Source: a virus
Lineage: Duplodnaviria > Caudoviricetes
DNA: 64,000 nt
Virus record (IMG/VR): IMGVR_UViG_3300000478_000013
Location: 29,514 to 93,513 of that record
Direction: 5' to 3' (one strand)
The position numbers and the translations under genes are program-made. Positions 5,790-54,380 of this stretch are shown here, one piece after another; position 1 is the first letter of the stretch, and every line of letters starts with the position of its first letter. Below the pieces are notes generated by a model, which ran no database searches, was not told the origin of the DNA, and saw only the letters and a program-made list of their open reading frames with translations.

Positions 5790-5863
5790 TGGGGGTTCGT
5801 CTAACGGCAGGACTGTGGATTTTGGTTCCATTAATCTAGGTTCGAATCCTAGGCCCCCAGCCA
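5790..5863 (+). tRNA. tRNA-Gln (TTG)
   Basis: Acceptor TGGGGGT/GCCCCCA, anticodon arm GTGGA-TT TTG GT-TCCAT, TTCGAAT T-loop, encoded CCA. Confidence 0.95.
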
Positions 5864-5869
5864 AAACAT

Positions 5870-5943
5870 TCGGGGTTCGTCTAACGGTAGGACGCCAGGT
5901 TCTGGTCTTGGCTATCTGGGTTCGAATCCTAGGCCCCGAGCCA
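5870..5943 (+). tRNA. tRNA-Gln (CTG)
   Basis: Acceptor TCGGGGT/GCCCCGA, anticodon arm CCAGG-TT CTG GT-CTTGG, encoded CCA. Confidence 0.95.
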
Positions 5944-8552: not shown

Positions 8553-8640
8553 GGAGGGATGGCTGAGTGGTCGAAAGCACTCGACTTGAAATCGAGCGTA
8601 CCTGAAGGTACCGTGGGTTCGAATCCCACTCCCTCCTCCA
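8553..8640 (+). tRNA. tRNA-Ser (TGA)
   Basis: GGAGGGA/TCCCTCC acceptor, CTCGA-CT TGA AA-TCGAG, long variable arm GTACC/GGTAC, CCA. Confidence 0.95.
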
Positions 8641-9282: not shown

Positions 9283-9842
9283 TTCTCCGAGTCGTCTTTT
9301 CCGAAAATTACGTATAACTTACGGTCAGCCAGAGACATGAGAGAGTCAGCGGAGCCTTCTTCTTCCCACTTTAAAAGTAGGTCTTCTACGGAGAAACTTT
9401 TACCAAGGCTAGTCTGGTTTCTCGTGGTCTCTAGTAGAGAAGCAAACGCGTCGAAGTCTTTCGACATAATCAAGTAAACCTTCCTAAGCCCATCATTGGA
9501 CAAGGATCCCGCTACCTTATAGGCGTTGCTGCCCATTTGATTTACGTAACCTCTGGTTACTCCTCGTTTTTTCACAAACTCAGGAAACAAACCAGACTGA
9601 ATAAGAGCGGATTCACCCATAGACTTCCAAAGATTGAAGCGGCTCGGGGCCGGTGCCTCAGCCGCTTCAATCATTTGGTCGACAAGTGGGGCCAGACTTA
9701 CGTTGTTACTCACAACCTGCCTAGCCAACAAATCTACAATGTAAAACTCTATCCAAGCCTCTAGGTGTAGTTTGACCCTAGCAGAAGCCTTTTTGATAGC
9801 TTCGTAGAAGAACAACTTAATGTCTGCTGCGTTAGAGTCCAC
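9279..9842 (-). CDS. Conserved bacterial-type hypothetical protein
   Basis: FYIVDLLAR...MGESALIQSGLFPE...RGVTRGYVNQMGSNAY resembles an uncharacterised proteobacterial/myxobacterial family (from memory). Confidence 0.55.
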   Translation of the reverse strand: MDSNAADIKLFFYEAIKKASARVKLHLEAWIEFYIVDLLARQVVSNNVSLAPLVDQMIEAAEAPAPSRFNLWKSMGESALIQSGLFPEFVKKRGVTRGYVNQMGSNAYKVAGSLSNDGLRKVYLIMSKDFDAFASLLETTRNQTSLGKSFSVEDLLLKWEEEGSADSLMSLADRKLYVIFGKDDSEN

Positions 9843-12800
9843 TGAGGTCGATGTCTAGGTTGTCTGCGTTGAGGGCGTCTAGGGCTTTCTGTATCTTTGG
9901 AACCAAGGCAGTGTAGGCGCTGACCAGATCAGGTCTACCCTTTCTCTCCAGAACCTGGGTGAAAGCGTTGGCATTTGGTACCTCGTTGGCAGTAAGCCAC
10001 TTAAGCGCCAGGTCATAGAGCTGCTTGCGCTTCTCCAGCGTGAGGGAGGCGGGACCTGTAGGGGCAGGTGCTTGTGGGGCAACAGGGGCAGGTTTCTCTT
10101 GAATCTGCTGAAGTTGTGCCTTCAGTGCGTTTATGGCGTCTGACGCTTCTCCCTTTGTTGGAGAGTCTCCAACACTCACTAGAGGAGTTTCTCCTGACGA
10201 AGAAATTTCCTCTGAGAGAGTCTTTATCTTCTCCACCTGCTTTGGAGTCGCCTCGTCATTTCTCCAGTCACCAGCAGGCCTCTTCTCTGTACTCTTGGGT
10301 GCAGGCTGGGACGTCAGAGGGTCCCTACCCTCTTGTACTAGACGAAGATAGGTTGTAAGACCTTGGACATACTTCTGGAAAACGTTCTTCGTGTCTTCAT
10401 CCAGGGAGTCCCTGTTGCTCTTCCAAAAAGAAGACAAATCTTCGTACGTCTTGCTTTGTATTTGTCCTACAGCCTGATCTAGCTGCTTAGACTCACTGGG
10501 AGACAGCCCCACCGCCCTCGATATAAAGGAATATCTCTCTACCCCAACAGGAAGGGTAGCTAGTGGTTTGGGCATCCTGCCTCTTGGGCGAGACTCTGGT
10601 TCAGGCATGACTGGAGTCTGTGGTGTAGCAGCCTCCCCGGCAGGTGCGGGTGCGGGAGCCGCAGCCTGTGGAAGCTGCAGTACTCTGACAGAAACCACGG
10701 GGGTTCCGTCTTCCGTCACAGGAAGGAACGTAGCGTCTTCCTCTGTGCCCGAGAATTCTGTTCCTTGTACAGCGACAAGTCCCTCCTCGATGCCTTGAAG
10801 TATGGCGTTCTTGGCCACGTCACGGTCGACGATCCCCTCAAGTCTTCTGATAAACTCTACTATTCCAAGATCTGCTCCCTTTTGCGCTCGCATGCCTGCA
10901 CGGAGCACGCTGTGAAGCATGTCGTCAGGGACCTCCGAACGGAAAGTGGGAGAGAAGGACATCTTCTCTGGTTCTGGCACTTCGACTTCCGCTTCATCTG
11001 ACTCAGAAGGAAGCACAACGTTATTAATTTCGGACGAAGGGATTCCATTTTCATTCAGGTAATCAACTATGTCCTGAGCAATGATTTCAAGCTGAGGGTT
11101 CTTTGCCTTACGCAACTTGGATAGAACTTGGTCCACGCCAAGTTCCTGCATCTTCTCCAAGATGAATACTGCGTTAGCCCTTTCCTGATCGTCAAAATCA
11201 AACTCGTTGGCCATCTGCTCAAAGATGACCTTGTACAGGTGGGTCCTGTCTGCTGATTCTGGCTCGTCTTGCTCTTCATCTTCCCCTGAAAGGAACTCTA
11301 CTGCGTCTGACGCCTCCTCTGGAAGGTCTATGCCAGTTTCCTTGATGTCTTCTATGAACTCGTCAACGTCCACGAAAGACGGACCAGGCTCCGGCATGGA
11401 ATCATCCATGTCATCAAACTCTTCCTGAAGATCCTCCTCAGAAATGCCTAGGTCCTTGGCCATGGCAGCGTCGTTGGGCACGCCATCCTTGCTTACGTAA
11501 GACTCTCTTCCCTTTAGAGGAGGTAGAGTTATACCCTTAGCGTCAGGGGAACCATCCTCAGACACGAGACCCTTACTGACCAAGAACTTGGCGACAGCAG
11601 AAGGTATGCCTTCTATATCTGTACCTTCGGAGCTGTTTACTACCTTCTCAAGTCCTTCCTTGCCTGGATTCTCCTTGATGGCCCTTATGATGTCGGCAAA
11701 TAGGTTCGAGTGGAATTCGTCAAGCTCCTTCTCTTCCACCATGTCCTGGAACACTGTCTTCTTGGCCTTATCCTTTTCTGCCTTAGAAAGGTCTTCTTCC
11801 GCAGAAGCGTACGGATTCTTGAAAGCCACCCCCGTAAGAGAACTAAGATCTGGTATTCCTGGAACCCCAGACTCATACTTACTCTTGTTCTTGCCAATGT
11901 GACGAAGTATCTTGACCACAATTTCATTGAGGTCAGGACGAGACTTGAGAAGCGCACCTATCAACTCTGCGGCGGTCTTTCCGCTTTCGGTCATCCGCAG
12001 CTGAACAGAACTCAGTATGTTGTTGGCCGTCTCTGCCTCGGCCTCTGACAGCCCCTGTTCCTCTATGAAGTACTCGAATCCCTTGCTCCATCTGGATATA
12101 GGGGTGCGTTCCACATTTACGCTGTCTACTTCGTCCTGTTCTGAAGGAGAACCTGCGTCTGGAGCGCCGGGACCAAACACGGACGACAGTCCGTAGTCGT
12201 TCCTCATCTTTGAAAGAGGCCGGGTCTTGTTTAGACGAGTAATGAAGTTCCTCATCTTCTGGAAGAGGTATAGGTAGCTGTACGGAGCAGATTTGCTCAT
12301 ATCCATAGACTCGAATTCAGACTCCATGTCGTCCAAACTCATGTCGTACATGGCAAATTCGCTCATCCTATGAAGCATGTCCAGTACACGCTCTCGCGTA
12401 TCCTTGGCAGATTCTACAGCTTCGTCGGGGCCCGCTTCATCCTTTAGTTCCTTTTGTATGGAATCGATAAGAGGATTCAGCTGAGCATCTAGAGGGAAGT
12501 GTCCCTTTACGTCCTCATAGGAAGGAAGCTTGTGTTCCCCAGTGTACAACGATTGGAAGTTCCACCCTTCATCACTCTTGATCTCGCTGTGCTGGTTGAT
12601 AAACAGACCCAGTCGTGTGGCAAGGGCCAGAACTCCCTTTCCTTCGATAGACTTGGACCGTCCTAGGCCTTTAACTATCTCCGAAAGTGGCTTGCCGTTG
12701 GATACCATTCTTATGATATCGTTAAGCTTTTCCGCCTCGTCCTTTGACAAACCTGGCTGTGCGTTGTGAAGCGCCTCTGCTGACTTAGCCCTGTCAGACA

Positions 12801-15800
12801 AGTCCACAGGGGCAAACCCACTACCTCCAGGAAGAGATTCCAACGGAACAACACGCAATGGTTTCTGAAGGTCGGACAGATCCCAGTTGCCCTTGTCCTT
12901 TCTAAGGTCCTCCGCGTTCTCCAGCAGGAACTTAACGACCGACTTTATGACGGCAGACTGATTGGATAGTGTGTTGGAGGCAGGTAAGCTAGGAGAGAAC
13001 TTCCTTACGTCTCCACCGTTCTTAAAGTGGTTACGAAGGGCCAACATCAGTATCTTAAAGTTTCGTATCCTAGCATCGTACGAAGCTTTACTCTCGTCAG
13101 GGTCGGGGGGCAGAGCTACAGCCTGTAGTTCTTCCAATAGGGACCTTCTGACCTCTGGTGCGGTCTTGCTGAGAGGAGCAAAGGTGGCTCCGTCTGTCTC
13201 CGCCTTCTCTTTGGCATATTGCTTTATGGCGTCCACTACAGCAGCAGCTGCACTATCGGACTCCATCATGTCCTTATAGTACCTATCTAGCGCAGCAACA
13301 GCTGCGTCAGGGAGATTTTTCTTGTGTGGAGCTATAGACCTTAAGAAGTCTTCGGGAGTAATAGTACCGTCAGTAAACTGGACTACTAGCCTCTCCGGAC
13401 TAACAGAGGTCTCCTTCTTAGGTCTCGCCTTAGGTGCTTCCTTCTTACCTTCTTGCTCCCTCGACGGATTTTTGATGCTCTTTACTGGCTTTATCTCTTC
13501 TTGGAGAGGACGATAGGTGTCCTCTTCTCCTTCTGGGAGCACGGGAGGAGCATACCCAGGAGTCTTGGACGGCTTGCTAATCTCGAACATGTTGTCCAGA
13601 TTGTAGGTTCCATCTCCTCTCTGGAATTCGTCACGGTCCGATAGGAAATCATTAACCTTGGTAAGGGTTTCTAACTCCTTCGAAACAGGGTGTTCTGATA
13701 TTTTGCTCTTTACCTTTTCCTGTATGTGCTCTATCAGGTTTTTAAGGTATTCCTTCTTTTCCTCTGCTTCAGCTTCCTGCGTCGCTAGGGTGTCCTTCAC
13801 CTTTGTGAAGTTTGACTCTAGCTCCTTTATCTTTTGGTTTACCTGACGAAGCTCTGTTCTAGTTTTCTTTCCGGAAAATGATACGGCTTCTCGTCTTAGC
13901 TCCTTCAGCGTTTCCTTTACTTCTTCGATGTCCTCTCGGATAAGTTCACGCGCTTGGATCATATCCTCCTGGTCTGCATCCGCCAGGTAGGCGTACTCCT
14001 TGTACACGGATAGAACAAAAGGGTCAAGCGGTGCTCTCGTGGCACCAGACTCGTCTGTCTCTCCCTTCTCCAAGGAAGAGATACCAGAGGGACCAAGCAG
14101 AGCGGATAGAGATTCTCCCCCTCCCTTGGTAGCAGCAAGTATTTCTGTGAGTGCCTTTAGTTTCTCCTTGGAAAGGGTGATCCTACTCTGGTACTCCTTT
14201 CCTGCCTCTTCCACGGCCCTTTCTCTTATTTTGTCCCGCTCCTTCTTAGCAGACACTATGTCTGCATCTATACCAGTTAGGGCAGATCTTGTTTTCTCTA
14301 CCGCGTCTTGTACTGATAGAAGATCTTCTCTTCTTTTCCTGGTCTTCTCCTCCATGAGAGAGGACCCCTTCTCTATAAGAGCGGATATCGCACGTTCCCT
14401 CTTATCCAAGAGAGCACTGAAGTCCTTTCCACTCACGTGGTTGTCTAGAGCTTCTTGCATAAGACTCTTGAGCAGGTCCTTGTCCACGCCGGGTATAGAA
14501 GTGGACATCTGGTCGAAGAGGGGCTTTTTGTTGAGAAGCTCTTGTTCTTCCTTCTTTTTATCCAGCTCCTTCTTTTTCTCCTCTACCTTAGTCTCATCTA
14601 CCTTGTACTCATCCCTTTCTATCTGAAGCATTTCATCAGCTAGTGTTTGAGACTCCTGCTTTTGAAGGAAGAACTGGGTAAAGCTGGGGTACTTGCTCTT
14701 GAAAAGAGCATCGTTCTTCTCCATGAGAGAGAAAAGTGCGTTGGAAAACTTGGATACGGCACGGTTGTAAGTCTTAGACACCAGGTCTATGATCTTCTCG
14801 TCGACCTCGTCATCACCTACGTCTGCACCAAATTCCTCTACAGCTATCTCCTGTAACCTCTCTCCAACACTATACGCTGGCTTTGTGCCCGCAGGGATGG
14901 AGTCCTTTAAGTTATCTACCTCGTCATCGTCTAGATGGTCTCTCCTAAGAAGACCTGGGACTCCCCATACCCAACGAAGAATGTTTTCCTCGTCAGGTTT
15001 CATAGATATCCGCATGAGAATAGAGTTTAGGAGGTTTTGTACCTTGTCAGTCTCTGGGTCCTCGGACCTAAGGAAAAGTAGGACCTTGTCCCTCTCGGTG
15101 TCTCCCTTGCTTACAAGCACCTTCTTCAGCGGAAGAAGAGAACGCTTCAGAGCGACGTCATCCTTTGCCTTCTCCCTAAGGATAGACATCAGGGACTCTA
15201 CTGCCCCTTTCTTCCTTCTCTTCATGTCACTTAGTGACTCTGATCCTGAGAAGGGCTCCATGGAGCCTATCTCCTGTAATGAAAGGACTGCGTTGTTAGC
15301 TTGCCCTATGCCAAGAATTCCTGATAAAAGTGCCCTGTCTTTCTCGTCCAGCCTAGGGTCATCCTGAGTCAGGAGTATGTCTGCAATGACCTCCAGTGTG
15401 TGAGATACATTCTCTTCTGACAAGGCAGCCATCTCTTGAGAAAGGGGGTCTGCGTCCTGGTCGGCTACCATGTCTACCACCGATACGTCTTCTTCGTCGT
15501 CTCCTGTGGTTATGGTAGGTGTAACAAATCTCTTGGCCTTTATTTTCTGAGTGTAAGATATTACTACCTTATCTCCGCCATTTTTAGGAGAAAATTCCAA
15601 AACACCAGACTCAGGGAAAGCAAGATATTCGTCTTTTCCTATCGAAACTCCCTGTGTGTCTGAGTTTCTGGTAAGAACCCTTAGCTTCTTGCCACGGTAG
15701 TATTCATCAAGCCAAATGATGCCTGAAGAAGGAGCAAAGAAGAATATGTCCTTGTTTCCCTTCAGCTTGTTTTTGCTCTCTGTTGTGTGTGACTGTCCCT

Positions 15801-17613
15801 CAGCCATTTCCAGCCTGACGTCACGCTCCGGGTCGATAACAGATATTTCACTAGTTCTTCCTGGTTGTGGCCCTACCACTATTTTTACGCGAGAAGACTT
15901 CTTTCTTCCTTCTTCCTCGGTTGGAAGAAGGTTTGCATTGGCTGGGGTAAATTCCTTGTTGTCAGGACCTACTACCTTTAGGTTATCTGTCCTAAATCCA
16001 GTTACTCCTATCTCCACTCTTCCACCGTTCTCTGGAATAGTGAGAGTCTTGGTCCCTGCACGTGATACGGTGTCCTTTACCTCGCTCACCGCTTGATTGT
16101 ACACCTGACGAAGAGCGGACCTTACGTTAGCAAGAAGGGGAGATCCGTGAAGACGGAAATCCACAGGATTGGGTATCTTTTCCTTGTTCCTCTTCTCTCT
16201 ATCAAAGTTGAGTACCGCTTTTCTGAACTCGTTGAGTGCAACAGAATGCAGCTCTGCCATACCTATGCTGGCTTTGTCGAAGACCTCTGCTATGGGGCGG
16301 AAAGACTTGAGTGACGTACCAGGAAAATAGGTCTGTGGGTCAAGTATCGCACCTATGAGCATGGCGGTGTAGTACTTGGAAAAGTCTACCATGTCCTCTT
16401 CCAGCGAGGATGCCTCCTGCCGTACGGACTTCATGTATTTGAGTGTGTCCAGGTCAAGAACTCTAGACCCTGACTCACCGAACTCAGGAAAGTCTTCATC
16501 ACCCTCCTGCGTCTGTAGGTCGTAAATTCTCTCAGAAATGAGAGAAGCCAGTGAATACATTCCAGATAGCTTTGGAGAAATTTCCGAGCTTACGAAATCG
16601 CGCAGAGTATCCCTGTTGTCCTGAGACGGGTTACTCTCCACCTTGTGCAGTAGATGCTCAAAGTCAATTAACTCTCCAGTTATGTCCGGAATTGAGGCTA
16701 ACGCTTCTTTCCTCTTTTCATCTGAGCTAATGCCGGAGGCCTTCTCGTGCATAGAGTCTATCTCAGACTCTATCAAAGGAATGAGTGTGTCTATGACAAA
16801 TTCTGGGTTGGGGTGAGACAGTATTTGTGTCCAAAGGTCTGATGCCTTGTCCTTGAACGATTCTATCCTGTCGAACTCCTCCTGGCTGTCCAGCTGGACT
16901 CTCTTCTTGTTCTCCTTGCCCGTAAGGAAGAATTCTATGCGAAACTTCTTTCCTTTTGCGCCTTCTGGCCAGTGGAGCATGCCCGTCTGGTAGTTGTACA
17001 CTACCTCCCCAGAAGAAGGGGTCTTGCTGGTCCCTGGCCGTACCTTGTACTCAGGGCCGCTATCATCGTCACCACCTACTTCAATAACACGAATTCCCTT
17101 CCGTAGGTCCACTCCCTTTTCGAGCTTGGTCTTCAGGCTGTTGTTGACTGTGGTCGTCTCGGCAAGAGGCTCAAAGTGGAACCAGTCAGACTCCAGGGAC
17201 CATTGACCCTCGTTCTTCTTCGTTTGTGATTTAGTGGAGGTCTCCTCTTCCTCTTCGTCGTCATCATCAAGAAGGTCGTCGTCTGACTCTTCCTCCGTTT
17301 CCTCCTCGGCATCCTCTGCCACCTCTCGCCAGTCGTAAGACACAACAACCTTGCGTCCAGAGTCCTTATCGGAGAAAAACAGAACCCCGTCCTCTGGAAG
17401 AAGGAAGAACGTTTCCTTTTTTAAGGAAGATGAATCTGTAGGAGTGAACTCTTTGTTCGTCTTGAGTTCCACAACAGAAACAGAAGAAGGGTTTATGTTT
17501 CCATTCTTCAGCTGCACTTCTCCATCGTCAGGGATAGTGAGTGTTTCTTTTTCGGCTTGTGGTTTAGACGGATCAGCGAGAACAAGTCTTGGAAACGTAA
17601 TAATTTGGGCCAT
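9832..17613 (-). CDS. Giant 2593-aa multidomain protein with sigma70-like regions, decoration-like beta domains, coiled coil and helical repeats; probably virion-associated
   Basis: Single uninterrupted ORF at the distal end of the head block; see findings. Confidence 0.8.
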   Translation of the reverse strand: MAQIITFPRLVLADPSKPQAEKETLTIPDDGEVQLKNGNINPSSVSVVELKTNKEFTPTDSSSLKKETFFLLPEDGVLFFSDKDSGRKVVVSYDWREVAEDAEEETEEESDDDLLDDDDEEEEETSTKSQTKKNEGQWSLESDWFHFEPLAETTTVNNSLKTKLEKGVDLRKGIRVIEVGGDDDSGPEYKVRPGTSKTPSSGEVVYNYQTGMLHWPEGAKGKKFRIEFFLTGKENKKRVQLDSQEEFDRIESFKDKASDLWTQILSHPNPEFVIDTLIPLIESEIDSMHEKASGISSDEKRKEALASIPDITGELIDFEHLLHKVESNPSQDNRDTLRDFVSSEISPKLSGMYSLASLISERIYDLQTQEGDEDFPEFGESGSRVLDLDTLKYMKSVRQEASSLEEDMVDFSKYYTAMLIGAILDPQTYFPGTSLKSFRPIAEVFDKASIGMAELHSVALNEFRKAVLNFDREKRNKEKIPNPVDFRLHGSPLLANVRSALRQVYNQAVSEVKDTVSRAGTKTLTIPENGGRVEIGVTGFRTDNLKVVGPDNKEFTPANANLLPTEEEGRKKSSRVKIVVGPQPGRTSEISVIDPERDVRLEMAEGQSHTTESKNKLKGNKDIFFFAPSSGIIWLDEYYRGKKLRVLTRNSDTQGVSIGKDEYLAFPESGVLEFSPKNGGDKVVISYTQKIKAKRFVTPTITTGDDEEDVSVVDMVADQDADPLSQEMAALSEENVSHTLEVIADILLTQDDPRLDEKDRALLSGILGIGQANNAVLSLQEIGSMEPFSGSESLSDMKRRKKGAVESLMSILREKAKDDVALKRSLLPLKKVLVSKGDTERDKVLLFLRSEDPETDKVQNLLNSILMRISMKPDEENILRWVWGVPGLLRRDHLDDDEVDNLKDSIPAGTKPAYSVGERLQEIAVEEFGADVGDDEVDEKIIDLVSKTYNRAVSKFSNALFSLMEKNDALFKSKYPSFTQFFLQKQESQTLADEMLQIERDEYKVDETKVEEKKKELDKKKEEQELLNKKPLFDQMSTSIPGVDKDLLKSLMQEALDNHVSGKDFSALLDKRERAISALIEKGSSLMEEKTRKRREDLLSVQDAVEKTRSALTGIDADIVSAKKERDKIRERAVEEAGKEYQSRITLSKEKLKALTEILAATKGGGESLSALLGPSGISSLEKGETDESGATRAPLDPFVLSVYKEYAYLADADQEDMIQARELIREDIEEVKETLKELRREAVSFSGKKTRTELRQVNQKIKELESNFTKVKDTLATQEAEAEEKKEYLKNLIEHIQEKVKSKISEHPVSKELETLTKVNDFLSDRDEFQRGDGTYNLDNMFEISKPSKTPGYAPPVLPEGEEDTYRPLQEEIKPVKSIKNPSREQEGKKEAPKARPKKETSVSPERLVVQFTDGTITPEDFLRSIAPHKKNLPDAAVAALDRYYKDMMESDSAAAAVVDAIKQYAKEKAETDGATFAPLSKTAPEVRRSLLEELQAVALPPDPDESKASYDARIRNFKILMLALRNHFKNGGDVRKFSPSLPASNTLSNQSAVIKSVVKFLLENAEDLRKDKGNWDLSDLQKPLRVVPLESLPGGSGFAPVDLSDRAKSAEALHNAQPGLSKDEAEKLNDIIRMVSNGKPLSEIVKGLGRSKSIEGKGVLALATRLGLFINQHSEIKSDEGWNFQSLYTGEHKLPSYEDVKGHFPLDAQLNPLIDSIQKELKDEAGPDEAVESAKDTRERVLDMLHRMSEFAMYDMSLDDMESEFESMDMSKSAPYSYLYLFQKMRNFITRLNKTRPLSKMRNDYGLSSVFGPGAPDAGSPSEQDEVDSVNVERTPISRWSKGFEYFIEEQGLSEAEAETANNILSSVQLRMTESGKTAAELIGALLKSRPDLNEIVVKILRHIGKNKSKYESGVPGIPDLSSLTGVAFKNPYASAEEDLSKAEKDKAKKTVFQDMVEEKELDEFHSNLFADIIRAIKENPGKEGLEKVVNSSEGTDIEGIPSAVAKFLVSKGLVSEDGSPDAKGITLPPLKGRESYVSKDGVPNDAAMAKDLGISEEDLQEEFDDMDDSMPEPGPSFVDVDEFIEDIKETGIDLPEEASDAVEFLSGEDEEQDEPESADRTHLYKVIFEQMANEFDFDDQERANAVFILEKMQELGVDQVLSKLRKAKNPQLEIIAQDIVDYLNENGIPSSEINNVVLPSESDEAEVEVPEPEKMSFSPTFRSEVPDDMLHSVLRAGMRAQKGADLGIVEFIRRLEGIVDRDVAKNAILQGIEEGLVAVQGTEFSGTEEDATFLPVTEDGTPVVSVRVLQLPQAAAPAPAPAGEAATPQTPVMPEPESRPRGRMPKPLATLPVGVERYSFISRAVGLSPSESKQLDQAVGQIQSKTYEDLSSFWKSNRDSLDEDTKNVFQKYVQGLTTYLRLVQEGRDPLTSQPAPKSTEKRPAGDWRNDEATPKQVEKIKTLSEEISSSGETPLVSVGDSPTKGEASDAINALKAQLQQIQEKPAPVAPQAPAPTGPASLTLEKRKQLYDLALKWLTANEVPNANAFTQVLERKGRPDLVSAYTALVPKIQKALDALNADNLDIDLSGL

Positions 17614-50870: not shown

Positions 50871-51218
50871 TCAGGCGTTTACTTTGATTTGGATGGGGGA
50901 GGCTCTACTCCGAAATGGCAATTTGATGACGAGCACTCCCTCAGACATACTTGCTTCGACTGCTTCTGTGTCGACAGAGCTTGGCAGACGTATTCTCCTG
51001 TCGGAAAAAGAGTACTCTGGTCTCTCTCGATGCAAGTATTTTCTATTTTCCTTGTTGGGTGGTTTCGTTTGGACGATGAGCAGCGACCCTTCGACGTTAA
51101 CTTGGACGTCCTCTGGCTTCATGCCTGCCAATTCCATTTCGACAACTCTTCCCTCTTCCGTATCGTAGACATCTACTGGAGGGGATTCCCTAAAGAACGA
51201 AGACAGTGTAGAGTACAT
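50871..51218 (-). CDS. Small heat shock protein (Hsp20/alpha-crystallin)
   Basis: PPVDVYD...ELAGMKPEDVQV...RRIRLPSSVDTEAVEASMSEGVLVIKLP; AGGAGG upstream. Confidence 0.92.
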   Translation of the reverse strand: MYSTLSSFFRESPPVDVYDTEEGRVVEMELAGMKPEDVQVNVEGSLLIVQTKPPNKENRKYLHRERPEYSFSDRRIRLPSSVDTEAVEASMSEGVLVIKLPFRSRASPIQIKVNA

Positions 51219-51339
51219 CTGTTTTTCTACCTCCTACACAGGAGGATTATCACTCGTTGGTGTCTGTCAACAAAAAAAGTTAGTCTGTGGACGATAAAAG
51301 TTATCTAATAGGCATAAGTCCTAACCCGACGGAGTCATT

Positions 51340-51678
51340 ATGCCTTACGATTTTGTTAGATCCACCAAAGATGGAGTAGAAGCTTCCCTTGCAGGAGTGT
51401 ACGATTTCATGTCCAACTACATCATTGTACGTGTGGACATCATTCAGAAGGGGTCCAAGGCATCTGACGCCTTGTCTGACCTTGCTTCTCTTGCCTACAA
51501 GGACCACTCTCACTACCCAAAGAATCCTTCGAACCTGTTTCACGAAATTAGAAGGAGTAGGGATAAGGTTAGGGAGAGGACCAAGAAGATCCTCCACAGC
51601 TATGATAGGCCTGCGTGGGTCACCGAGGTGTACGATCTTGCTGAAAGACTAAAGAAAAAGCCATCCAATGGTGGATGA
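51340..51678 (+). CDS. Hypothetical protein
   Basis: GGAG upstream. Confidence 0.55.
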   Translation: MPYDFVRSTKDGVEASLAGVYDFMSNYIIVRVDIIQKGSKASDALSDLASLAYKDHSHYPKNPSNLFHEIRRSRDKVRERTKKILHSYDRPAWVTEVYDLAERLKKKPSNGG

Positions 51679-51784
51679 CATTTTCTGTTTGCTCTCTTGC
51701 CATTAGATTCTGGAAGTGCTGGAACATCTTCTAGAATTGCAATCTGAAATAGTCTTATTCTTCTTGTTTTTTATGTGACTCATT

Positions 51785-52123
51785 ATGCAAGAAGAGCCCG
51801 AGTACGACTTCATTTGCCTTTGCTGTGGTGGAAGAAATGGCGAAAGAAACCCTTTCTGCTCCTTCCATAAATACGTGAAGGACCTAGAAGGCCCAATAGA
51901 CGACGAGGAATATCTCAAGCAATTGGGTGAATGGCTTGGCAGTGAGGAGTACAAGGGCTCTGTGATGGTACCTCCTGGGTTCATTATGTCCAAGGAGTAT
52001 CGATTTCATCTCGTGAAGATGACAGATCCTCACCGAAAATCCAGAAGTCCTGGTGTCTTGCTGTTTACCTTGCCGGGGATAGATGTTCCTGGTACGATCA
52101 ACTTGCTTAGGTTCATGAATTGA
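51785..52123 (+). CDS. Hypothetical protein
   Basis: ORF in operon. Confidence 0.5.
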   Translation: MQEEPEYDFICLCCGGRNGERNPFCSFHKYVKDLEGPIDDEEYLKQLGEWLGSEEYKGSVMVPPGFIMSKEYRFHLVKMTDPHRKSRSPGVLLFTLPGIDVPGTINLLRFMN

Positions 52124-52132
52124 GAGGAAACT

Positions 52133-52814
52133 ATGGAAAGTGTCATCGTAGAAATTCGTGCAGGTGAAGGCGGAAAAGACGCCAAACTTCTTGTTAAGGA
52201 CCAGTTTCAGATCTATGTAAACCTCATGAGTCGGAGGGGTCTTTGAGTACACTGTCATAGAGGAATCTGACGGATTCCTGGCGTTCCAGGCCCAGGGCAA
52301 AGGATCCAAGAAGGCCTTTTCCCATGAAGCTGGAGGCCACAGGTTTCAGCGGATACCTCCCACAGAAAAGAGGGGTCGTGTACAGACCTCCACCGTCACC
52401 GTAGCCGTTCTGGAGGAAGATTCCTCGGAACCTGTTCACATATCGGAAAACGATGTGGAATGGACTACGTGCAGGGGTTCAGGGGCGGGTGGTCAGCACC
52501 GAAACAGGACGGAGTCTGCTGTGCAGATGACTCACATTCCTACTGGGATTAGGGTCAGGGTGGAAAACGAAAGGTCACAGCACCAGAACAAGGAGTTGGC
52601 CTTCAGGATATTGTCCGCCCGTATCAAAGAGGCTGCGAGGCAGAAGGCTTCCTCAGATCGTGACCAGCACCGTAAAAGTCAAGTAGGAAGCGGTATGCGT
52701 GGAGACAAGGTACGTACCATACGACAACAGGACGGAGTCGTCACCGACCATGCCTCTGGTAACAAAATCCGTTACAAAGACTACGTTCGTGGTTTGTGGG
52801 AAGGGCTTTTCTGA
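52133..52814 (+). CDS. Class-1 peptide chain release factor, RF1-type, lacking domain 1; made via +1 frameshift (join 52133..52243,52245..52814; about 226 aa)
   Basis: Frame 0: MESVIVEIRAGEGGKDA...RRGL*; frame +1: EAGGHRFQRIPPTEKRGRVQTSTVTVAVL...GSGAGGQHRNRTESAV...ERSQHQNK...KVRT. Confidence 0.9.
52233..52247 (+). promoter_or_regulatory. prfB-type programmed +1 frameshift cassette
   Basis: GGAGG-GGT-CTT-TGA-G: internal SD, 3-nt spacer, slippery CTT-T, in-frame UGA. Confidence 0.85.
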
Positions 52815-53038
52815 TGCTTTTGAGTGACCTTATACGAAGGTTGGAGTCCATGAAGGAGGAGCACGGGGATATTCACGTCCTCGTGCCCTCCGACTACCCA
52901 GGAATGTACGTCAGGTTGTCTTACGTTGGAGAAGGAAATCATTCTCTTGCGGATGATGACACCGTAGTGGTTTCTGGTACTCGATATGTAGAGTGGAATG
53001 AGGAAGACGACCACGAGTTTTTCGTGGTTCTAGGTTGA
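52814..53038 (+). CDS. Hypothetical phage protein
   Basis: TGATG-coupled MLLSDLIRRLESMKEEHGDIHV. Confidence 0.6.
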   Translation: MLLSDLIRRLESMKEEHGDIHVLVPSDYPGMYVRLSYVGEGNHSLADDDTVVVSGTRYVEWNEEDDHEFFVVLG

Positions 53039-53118
53039 CACATGGATAGAGAAAGATGTCGTAGAGTTCTCCCTCTACGACACACGCGTTAGCCATGATG
53101 CTGCTTGGCTAACTGGGT

Positions 53119-53562
53119 CTATCGAAGGCAATTCTTAGGGATCCAAGCTTCCTCCGTATACTGCGCTATGCCAGCAGCATCCCTTTGGTGAACAGAATCT
53201 AGGGAGGAGAACGTCTCCTCCCAGTTCTGTTCTTTCTGCTTGTTCCACCAGTTTTTCCACTGGGCTGCAGTGAGTTGGATTAGGTCCCTTCCTCCATGTG
53301 TCTTGGATAAGACCGACACTCTCCCTATCATTTGATTTATGATTTCAGCGTGGATGGACTGTCCTCTGTTCCTCACCATGAATCTCTCTAATACCACGTA
53401 ATCTGGGTTGATTCTTCTGACTAACTCTATGAAATCATTATTGAATTCTGCGTCGTTGTTTACGTCAGGCATGGTCTTCAGCCACCCAGCCTCTTTAACA
53501 CCTTCACACCAATGGACCCAGGCGAAGTTAACCTTCCCTGGGTCCATTGCTAGAATGGTCAT
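53119..53562 (-). CDS. RuvC-like Holliday junction resolvase
   Basis: ILAMDPG, VVLERF, WKN, HQRDAAGIA; start moved to ATG 53562. Confidence 0.85.
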   Translation of the reverse strand: MTILAMDPGKVNFAWVHWCEGVKEAGWLKTMPDVNNDAEFNNDFIELVRRINPDYVVLERFMVRNRGQSIHAEIINQMIGRVSVLSKTHGGRDLIQLTAAQWKNWWNKQKEQNWEETFSSLDSVHQRDAAGIAQYTEEAWIPKNCLR

Positions 53563-53981
53563 TCCCCTCTTACCGACCTCTCTAGTTCCTCTAGAGTGGT
53601 GTCGTTCATTAGGAAATGATCGTTTTGTTTCATCATCACTTCTAGATCCATCATCGGACGAGTGATAGACTTGCTTGTTTTCCATGCTTCTACTAATTCT
53701 ATCAATAATGTATTTGTTTGTTGAAGTCTTCCAACTATTCCCTTGTACCTTGCGTATACAGACGTTAGTATTGAACTTGTTCCCTTCGCCTTTTCCACCA
53801 CGAAATCGCTGTATTTTTCCTCCGCACGGACGCGGTTTTGCAGCTCCCTGAGTTTTCCCAGGAAAATCTCGTGTATGACAGAAGTGACTTCTACTTCTGT
53901 TCTACTTGAACCTACCCTTACGTCCAAGAAGAACCTTCCGTCTTGGTGCTGTCGAAGTTCTATATCCACCACTACATCCAA
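53559..53981 (-). CDS. Hypothetical protein
   Basis: Coupled ORF. Confidence 0.55.
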   Translation of the reverse strand: MDVVVDIELRQHQDGRFFLDVRVGSSRTEVEVTSVIHEIFLGKLRELQNRVRAEEKYSDFVVEKAKGTSSILTSVYARYKGIVGRLQQTNTLLIELVEAWKTSKSITRPMMDLEVMMKQNDHFLMNDTTLEELERSVRGE

Positions 53982-54380
53982 TCAAGTGTAGTTCCTCATG
54001 CCATCGGGAGACAGCCTTGGACCACCTGTTTCGTTGACTATGATTAGCTTTCGAAATATAAGGTCTGCTAAGGCATCCTTCACGAATTGATCTATCTTTT
54101 TAATGGTCTCTTGCTCAAGAATTACAGGGTCAAAGCCTATGACTAGGCTGTTACCATGTGAGGGTTGTGTTCTTGCGGTACTTCCATATCTTCCGTTGGA
54201 TCTGTACCCAATTCTTCTTAGCTGTTCGCTTCTGCTTATAAAGCCCACATCAGAGGACCCGAACATTTTGGTACCAAGGACGATGACCGCACGATCTGGA
54301 ACCGTAAGAGGTACAGCTGTTAGTGGGTTGTCGTCAGGTGGTATGCCTGTGGGATCTGCTCTTCTTATTTCTATCGTCAT
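53982..54380 (-). CDS. Hypothetical, possibly virion protein
   Basis: Coupled ORF. Confidence 0.5.
   Translation of the reverse strand: MTIEIRRADPTGIPPDDNPLTAVPLTVPDRAVIVLGTKMFGSSDVGFISRSEQLRRIGYRSNGRYGSTARTQPSHGNSLVIGFDPVILEQETIKKIDQFVKDALADLIFRKLIIVNETGGPRLSPDGMRNYT

Follow-up and report, generated by a model that had tools for sequence, protein, structure and literature searches.

The window analyzed here is a stretch of 64,000 nucleotides from the Caudoviricetes record IMGVR_UViG_3300000478_000013 and contains, at positions 52,133–52,814, a gene for a release factor (RF) that is split between two reading frames. Frame 0 of the gene starts with the ATG at position 52133 and consists of 37 codons, the last of which read AGT CGG AGG GGT CTT and are followed by the stop codon TGA at 52244–52246 and a G. 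The +1 frame is open from position 52245 to a TGA at 52812–52814 and contains the motifs PPT and GGQ. Upstream of the junction, the +1 frame is blocked by stop codons, with two to four of them distributed across the first 37 codons in the genes of the clade to which that of the window belongs. A single +1 step at CTT-T joins the two parts into a product of 226 residues. A plain listing of open reading frames (ORFs) yields just a 37-residue ORF and a 119-residue ORF that starts with the GTG at 52455. An earlier note, made from the sequence alone, had described this geometry, with the ATG at 52133, a stop at codon 38 within GGAGG-GGT-CTT-TGA-G, and release-factor sequence in the +1 frame, and had remarked that gene callers catch only the C-terminal 119 residues. 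Re-reading of the window agrees with the note on all of these points.

Programmed +1 frameshifting at CUU-UGA is known from textbooks as the means by which RF2 regulates its own synthesis. All elements of the prfB-type cassette that mediates it are present in the split gene: a run resembling a Shine–Dalgarno (SD) sequence, a three-nucleotide spacer, a CUU slip codon, a stop codon in the A site, and a +1 frame that restores the protein (Table 1). The exact sequence GGAGG-N3-CTTTGA occurs once in the 64-kb window, compared with 0.07 occurrences expected by chance. No stimulatory RNA structure stands out 3′ of the shift site (z = −0.61). Transcriptional slippage has been ruled out as an explanation of the split, as the run of T is just three bases long. 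Readthrough of the TGA at 52244–52246 in frame 0 yields no release-factor sequence, and an alternative genetic code has been rejected, with the window being 92% coding under the standard code and containing ORFs of up to 2,593 residues.

Table 1 Features of the split release factor gene and its immediate flanks. Positions are those of the window.
Feature	Position	Strand	Basis
SD-like GAGGA 5′ of the start codon	52124–52128	+	Sequence
Frame-0 part, 37 codons (start of RF domain 2, EIRAGEGG...RRGL), and gate stop TGA	52133–52246	+	Pfam PCRF match, ratio of nonsynonymous to synonymous substitution rates (dN/dS)
Internal SD-like stimulator GGAGG within the codons CGG AGG	52233–52237	+	Motif and codon bias in the family
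Three-base spacer codon GGT (E-site codon during the shift)	52238–52240	+	Spacer length constant in all relatives
Shift site CTT-TGA-G; peptidyl-tRNA(Leu) would slip from CUU to UUU, with GAG read next	52241–52247	+	Sequence
+1 frame part, 189 codons and terminal TGA (rest of domain 2, GGQ domain 3, domain 4)	52245–52814	+	Pfam PCRF and RF-1
Tripeptide "anticodon" PPT, aligned to PxT of RF1	52356–52364	+	Alignment with Thermotoga and Thermus RF1
Catalytic GGQ (residues 119–121)	52488–52496	+	Invariant in the family alignment
74-codon ORF with its ATG overlapping the RF stop (TGATG at 52812–52816)	52814–53038	+	Weak PHROG match of unknown function

The same break recurs in relatives of the gene. 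A scan of IMG/VR with the family alignment identified 304 relatives, the best 80 of which were fetched, most of them located on contigs of 100–600 kb; a scan of prokaryotes covered one genome per species. A +1 shift at the identical codon is needed by 68 of the 90 family loci that could be placed in frame, which correspond to 65 distinct proteins. The slip codon is CTT in all 65 gated genes, and in all of them the next codon is a stop. The base following the gate stop is C in 51 genes, G in ten, as in the window, A in four, and T in none. The sequence CGGAGG occupies positions −12 to −7 in 35 of the 65 genes, and GGAGG is matched at four or more of its five bases in 56. The spacer is three bases long in all relatives, filled by a variable codon (GGT, TCT, TGT, CGT, and others). 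The choice of synonymous codons within the cassette is strongly biased: the arginine codons that form the SD-like run are AGG in 41 of 44 cases and CGG in 48 of 54, against 10% and 18% elsewhere in the same genes, and CTT accounts for 15% of the leucine codons elsewhere in the gated genes. In the clade of the window's gene, dN/dS over the first 37 codons has a median of 0.12, with synonymous sites near saturation. The best 120 matches in the protein database comprise 53 contiguous proteins of about 225 residues and 67 fragments produced by gene callers, which begin at the shift site and show the characteristic read-in from the +1 frame. The earlier note named homologs that are all contiguous and free of a cassette as the finding that would speak against a programmed shift. 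Instead, the shift codon is shared by 65 distinct gated genes that keep CTT and the SD, and only nine relatives are truly contiguous, with neither SD nor CTT. These comparisons indicate that the break is very probably a genuine programmed +1 frameshift.

The closest cellular copies in the one-genome-per-species scan are from Myxococcota, followed at lower identity by canonical RF1 genes. Gated short factors of Myxococcota are encoded in the chromosome of Archangium gephyra (L086), in a metagenome-assembled genome of Labilithrix (L094), and at loci L087–L091. The Archangium and Labilithrix genomes contain the short gene alongside normal RF1 and RF2.

The joined product is most likely an RF1-lineage class-I release factor made up of domains 2–4 only. 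It matches the NCBIfam model of RF1 in one stretch, positions 105–317 of 347, with a score of 219 bits, of which the downstream part alone reaches 187 bits; the corresponding scores against RF2 and PrfH are 137 and 96 bits. The Pfam domains PF03462 (PCRF, second half) and PF00472 (RF-1) are matched above their cut-offs with 74 and 105 bits, respectively, and the 37-residue frame-0 piece alone matches PCRF with an E value of 6.8e-6. In the phylogenetic tree, RF2 is split off with 100% support, and the short family groups with RF1. The gene from the window belongs to a well-supported clade of seven genes, all of which are UGA-gated. However, the scores of 219 and 215 bits against the full-length RF1 models TIGR00019 and NF001859 are far below the respective cut-offs of 400 and 423, and the second match is restricted to positions 113–328 of 361. 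Domain 1, about 105 residues relative to RF1, is absent from the joined protein, and no separate domain-1 piece was found elsewhere in the 93.5-kb record. According to published work summarized in PMC1586002, release factors can read codons and release peptides without domain 1, which is needed for interplay with RF3. Therefore, contact of the factor with RF3 is not expected.

The AlphaFold model of the joined product has a mean predicted local distance difference test score of 87, with values of 94–97 around the junction, and is continuous across it. The junction falls between a helix formed by residues 15–34 and a strand formed by residues 38–45. The model superposes onto ribosome-bound RF1 with a template modeling (TM) score of 0.90 and a root-mean-square deviation of ~2.1 Å, whereas the TM scores for RF2 are 0.81–0.85 and that for the PrfH structure 9mor is 0.67. 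The recognition loop QR-I-PPT-EKRGR-V-QTS aligns with QRVP-x-TE-x-x-GR-x-HTS of RF1, and PPT aligns with PVT of Thermotoga and Thermus RF1, which suggests that the factor may read UAA and UAG. The Gln of HRxQR, the Thr following the His/Gln position, the GGQ motif, and the switch-loop region are kept from RF1, and the loop QR-I/V-PP-T/N-EKRGR is almost invariant across the family. Non-canonical features include Asp in place of Glu at the tip of helix α5 in the whole family, the replacement of the His from GR-x-HTS by Gln in this gene (His or Gln in the family), and the motif GGQHRN.

These results bear out the RF1 determinants that had been listed in the earlier note, PPT and the Gln of HRxQR, by alignment, hidden Markov model (HMM) scores, tree, and fold. 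The note had also recognized the missing domain 1, in agreement with the RF1 model being matched from position 105 only and with the lack of such a piece elsewhere in the record. Its placement of the shift site inside domain 2, unlike in prfB, was correct, since the site follows residue 37 and corresponds approximately to position 140 of the RF1 model. The distinction from PrfH drawn in the note also stands. The score of 96 bits (90 bits on DNA) is below the cut-off of 166.65 for TIGR03072, and no Pfam or PHROG match to RtcB was found among the ORFs upstream of the release factor gene, although the lack of domain 1 is shared with PrfH. The PrfH branch in the tree has a length of 10, and its placement is uninformative. 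The match to ArfB is limited to a 35-residue stretch around GGQ, with 42 bits against a cut-off of 100 for NF006718, and the factor contains domains 2 and 4.

The identity of the gate stop is not uniform in the family: it is TGA in 50 of the 65 genes, TAG in 13, and TAA in two. According to the tree, TAG gates arose at least four times if only well-supported branches are counted, and parsimony requires eleven origins. The gate stop differs between pairs of genes that are as close as 84% identity, with the recognition loop unchanged. TAA is depleted, as two gates of 65 compare with ~23% of gene stops. There is no link of the gate stop to the tripeptide, since PPT, PPN, and SPT each occur with TGA and TAG gates, to GC content (means of 0.56 and 0.57), or to the stop usage of neighboring genes (52% TGA in both classes, p = 0.90).

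Gates of other construction are found in some relatives. Three of them have an in-frame stop at the codon aligned to 52244–52246, in the contexts TAT TAG A in L012 (~2609–2614), CTA TGA C in L013, and CTC TGA C in L043. These genes would need readthrough or suppression instead of a shift. The phage of L012 (record G005) encodes a tRNA with a CTA anticodon, of the amber-suppressor type, at L179:15862–15938 within an array of 24 tRNAs, and this tRNA could decode the in-frame TAG of the release factor gene. In one clade, the gate is positioned about ten codons further downstream, after approximately residue 46. It is an in-frame TGA or TAG in L046, L057, L083, and L058, and L106 from this clade contains a full cassette, CGGGGG-CAC-CTT-TGA-C. 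The sister clade, formed by L075, L084, L096, and L097, has two in-frame stops, which in L084 are TGA and TAG combined in one gene. For a phage that has an in-frame TGA at this second position, use of the standard code is indicated by an ORF-coverage test for recoding, which is crude, only suggestive on 40-kb samples, and uninformative on loci of 5.6 kb. The PxT loop is three or four residues short in L049 and L054, and also in L003 and L043, as exemplified by HRWQE-KSGGRMQTS; these genes keep GGQ and the gate, and the loop is complete in L019, to which L049 is 84% identical. In view of the interchange of TGA, TAG, and TAA and of the re-built gates, selection seems to act on an early stop-codon gate and not on UGA itself. 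The earlier note had proposed a gate dependent on UGA and RF2. Its prfB-like SD-N3-CUU-UGA cassette is confirmed; however, the specificity for UGA does not hold, since 13 of the 65 gates are TAG and two are TAA.

The occurrence of the shift and the dependence of its rate on termination are inferred from the sequence, and the gate probably acts as a termination sensor. In line with the established mechanism of prfB, ribosomes would start at the ATG at 52133, translate 37 codons, and pause once CUU occupies the P site and UGA the A site, with GGAGG, located three bases upstream, pairing with the anti-SD sequence of 16S rRNA. Fast release at UGA would free a useless 37-residue peptide. If termination were slow, the peptidyl-tRNA would slip by +1 to UUU, GAG would be read next, and the 226-residue factor would be made. 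The output of the gene would thus rise with a shortage of termination capacity in the infected cell and fall when this capacity is ample. The phage uses SD-type starts, with SD cores located 5′ of 33% of the longest-ORF starts in the window compared with 13% in the background, and its host should therefore respond to the internal SD.

Two routes of feedback can be envisaged. In the indirect route, the factor would take over part of the shared UAA load, the RF2 of the host would be freed for UGA, and the gate would close. RF1 and RF2 share the UAA load according to the "communicating vessels" model (PMC7530605). In the direct route, the factor itself would read UGA and so limit its own synthesis. 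In the UAG-gated relatives, the feedback would be direct. The indirect route is preferred because it needs no unproven change of specificity; it is nevertheless put forward tentatively, at somewhat less than an even chance, as is the whole chain of events that includes it, and direct feedback at UGA is regarded as doubtful. TGA is the commonest stop codon of the phage, which uses the standard code (35 of 64 ORFs in the window), and a UGA-reading factor would therefore be more useful to it. Under the direct route, the tight gating would be explained by the toxicity of release factors of relaxed specificity that are not controlled by a frameshift gate (PMC7530605). Both routes are compatible with the avoidance of TAA, since this stop is recognized by the two host factors and the time for a slip would be short.

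Several points weigh against a termination sensor of this kind. The p-values for codon bias ignore shared ancestry. The base after the UGA in the window is G, not the C that is present in 51 of the 65 relatives and in prfB. The stop-codon specificity is a prediction, and the decoding pocket is not canonical, with Asp for Glu and Gln for His. The members that have lost the PxT loop and keep GGQ and the gate fit badly with strict reading of stop codons by these factors. Furthermore, no correlate of the type of gate stop was found among tripeptides, GC content, and the stops of neighboring genes, and the data therefore do not separate direct from indirect feedback.

Relaxed specificity of the factor, which would read UGA in addition to UAA and UAG, offers a different explanation of the gate, as a direct self-limiting loop like that of prfB, needed since a loose factor would be toxic. 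The swapping of TGA, TAG, and TAA gates between close relatives with the same recognition loop favors such a factor, whereas the gate of prfB is never TAG (PMC12421855). The non-canonical decoding elements, namely the Asp for Glu at the α5 tip, the Gln for His, and the extra Lys-Arg after PPT, point in the same direction, a UGA-reading factor would best serve a phage in which TGA is the commonest stop, and relaxed RF2 variants are toxic unless the frameshift gate is kept (PMC7530605). However, no residue pattern known for omnipotence is demonstrated here, the Pro of PxT is retained, and the loop is conserved as strongly as in ordinary RF1. Ito and colleagues reportedly showed in Nature in 2000 that the Pro of PxT restricts the second base to A, which weighs against relaxed specificity, and this explanation is considered rather unlikely. 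It is a speculative and unlikely proposition that this large family from phages and mobile elements evolved its gate, a +1 frameshift or an in-frame stop with UGA, UAG, or UAA, independently of that of prfB because the factor is a domain-1-less, RF3-independent terminator at all three stops. If true, the factor would be a natural omnipotent class-I factor of the bacterial type, used by phages to seize or boost termination in infection.

The shift could also be constitutive and provide a fixed low yield, or be a fixed "saviour" of an old one-base insertion, with no sensing involved. The gated and contiguous forms differ by an apparent one-base insertion in an R-R-G-F-D/E motif that is already cassette-like, and the type of gate stop has no link to any measured phage property. 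However, a weak start site is a simpler way to a low yield, and the stop that immediately follows the slip codon, in the A site, in 65 of 65 genes, together with the strong avoidance of TAA, which is read by both host factors, makes a constitutive shift improbable. In related clades, the stop gate has been re-built at another site and in the form of in-frame stops, which argues for selection for the stop itself. A rescue function in the manner of PrfH or ArfB, at ribosomes stalled by host defense or damage and with the gate serving as a stress sensor, is quite improbable. The missing domain 1 resembles PrfH, some relatives with a shortened or deleted PxT loop retain GGQ and the gate, and Burroughs and Aravind argue that RF paralogues were recruited in ribosome-jamming conflicts (PMC6514570). 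However, the score of 96 bits is to be compared with the PrfH cut-off of 167, and the TM score of 0.67 to PrfH with that of 0.90 to RF1; the gene has neither RtcB nor another conserved partner beside it, its product has no ArfB-like C-terminal tail, and the stop-codon recognition loop and the switch-loop region are retained in nearly all members. Finally, the fragments reported by gene callers would also be produced by a pseudogene or by an assembly or sequencing indel, in which case only the 119-residue C-terminal ORF, or nothing, would be expressed. Such an origin is practically excluded, because the identical break is present in 65 distinct genes from independent metagenome assemblies and finished bacterial chromosomes. 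Both parts of the gene are under purifying selection, the cassette is under selection at the level of codons, and the 119-residue product would miss the conserved recognition loop.

The window constitutes the 3′ 64 kb of the 93.5-kb record, for which CheckV indicates a completeness of ~24%, and the phage is therefore probably a jumbo phage. One relative is located on a 392-kb contig. No deposited phage similar at the DNA level was found in a blastn search with window positions 51000–54000. The neighbors of the release factor gene are a gene of the Hsp20 family, a RuvC-like resolvase, and unknowns. The small heat-shock protein (Hsp20 family, E value 8e-20) is encoded on the minus strand at 50871–51218 and is also present in L006, the nearest relative. 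The ORF at 51785–52123, which ends nine bases before the release factor start, encodes a Cys-rich protein (C-x-CC ... C-x-x-H) without a family match. It is adjacent to the release factor gene in L006 and L008, and not in more distant relatives. The 74-codon ORF that overlaps the release factor stop is found, among relatives, in L006 only and is not a family-wide partner; its translation may depend on ribosomes that have shifted, through translational coupling to the +1 frame. No conserved partner gene that might stand in for domain 1 was identified, as neighbors are common to the nearest relatives only. Three tRNA genes, Gln-TTG, Gln-CTG, and Ser-TGA, are located at 5790–5943 and 8553–8640, and no suppressor tRNA was found by the tRNA scan, which covered the 64-kb window. 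The 2,593-codon ORF on the minus strand at 9832–17613 has no Pfam match, and most other large ORFs in the window are likewise unassignable, as is usual for diverged jumbo phages.

The contiguous relatives contain GGT TTT GAG, encoding R-R-G-F-E together with the preceding codons, where the gated genes have GGT CTT TGA G. This comparison suggests that the cassette may have arisen by one inserted base in an R-R-G-F/L-D/E motif. The codons of Arg-Arg-Gly can spell GGAGG, and those of Phe-Asp/Glu can spell TTTGA, and because of this the motif is one inserted base away from the full cassette. This proximity would explain how the same device arose at a site other than that of prfB.

The device has been retained by dozens of diverged phages and is also present in some bacterial chromosomes. 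It is of interest for recoding, termination, and phage takeover of translation, and the family provides a natural test bed for the requirements of shifty stops, for RF1–RF2 feedback through the shared UAA pool, and for a bacterial-type factor reading all three stops. Gene callers split or truncate these genes, and a widespread phage translation factor is thus under-reported in annotations. The split gene also offers a concrete, testable case for why large phages carry their own termination machinery.

A virus-encoded termination factor that depends on recoding at internal stops has been described before. The class-I release factor gene of Mimivirus and Megavirus contains one frameshift and one readthrough at internal stops, in which the authors saw a bacterial-type autoregulation (Jeudy et al. 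2012, PMC3521657). However, that factor is of the eRF1 (eukaryotic/archaeal) type and belongs to amoeba viruses, and its signals and their positions are unrelated to those in the window. A 2016 review of recoding listed the Mimivirus eRF1-type gene as the one viral precedent and the RF1/UAG counterpart of the RF2 device as unknown (PMC5009743). In the literature searched, in which subscription papers are thinly covered, neither a frameshift gate in a phage RF1 or RF2 nor a description of this family was found. Large phages carry genes for RF1 and RF2 (PMC7162821; bioRxiv 2021.08.26.457843), and the release factors of recoded phages (Jade, Lak, crAss-like) have been described as a code-change module together with suppressor tRNA (Borges et al., bioRxiv 2021.08.26.457843). 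The split gene resembles them in being a release factor gene of a large phage, thought to reshape termination during infection. By contrast, no frameshift gate has been reported for those factors. The phage studied here is standard-coded and has no suppressor tRNA in the 64-kb window.

PrfH (RFH), which is linked to RtcB and damaged ribosomes, is likewise a short class-I factor without domain 1 that has spread on mobile DNA; however, the recognition loop of the factor studied here is RF1-like, and PrfH genes have no reported frameshift gate. The closest relationship is to RF1, the product of prfA, which provides the best HMM, tree, and fold matches and shares the PCRF and RF-1 domains, the PxT-type loop, GGQ, and the switch-loop region. 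A genome survey yielded no evidence of a programmed shift in prfA (PMC12421855), and RF1 genes are reported to be without programmed frameshifting (PMC12421855, PMC5009743). The split gene differs from prfA in that its product is a short factor that lacks domain 1, remains far below the equivalog cut-off, and contains GGQHRN in place of the GGQHVN of RF1.

The +1 frameshift cassette of prfB, consisting of an SD, a three-nucleotide spacer, and CUU UGA C, is said to have been described by Craigen and Caskey in 1986. The gated genes share with prfB the SD-like run, the three-base spacer, the CUU slip codon, the stop in the A site, mostly followed by C, and the +1 step into the frame of a class-I release factor; in both groups, neither the SD nor the slip codon is present in relatives that are in frame. 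By contrast, the genes of the family belong to the RF1 lineage, and their shift site is at codon 37/38, between helix α5 and the first strand of domain 2, whereas that of prfB is at approximately codon 25 in domain 1. The family is carried by phages and mobile DNA, and prfB by core genomes. In a survey of prfB from 8,164 genomes, the gate was TGA in 98.6%, TAA in 1.4%, and never TAG (PMC12421855); the gate of the family is not restricted to one stop and has switched repeatedly on the tree. The site of the gate is not homologous to that of prfB, and its origin is therefore independent. As predicted from the sequences, the family thus presents a new occurrence of a prfB-like device, at another position, in a gene of the RF1 lineage, and with UGA, UAG, and occasionally UAA as the gate.

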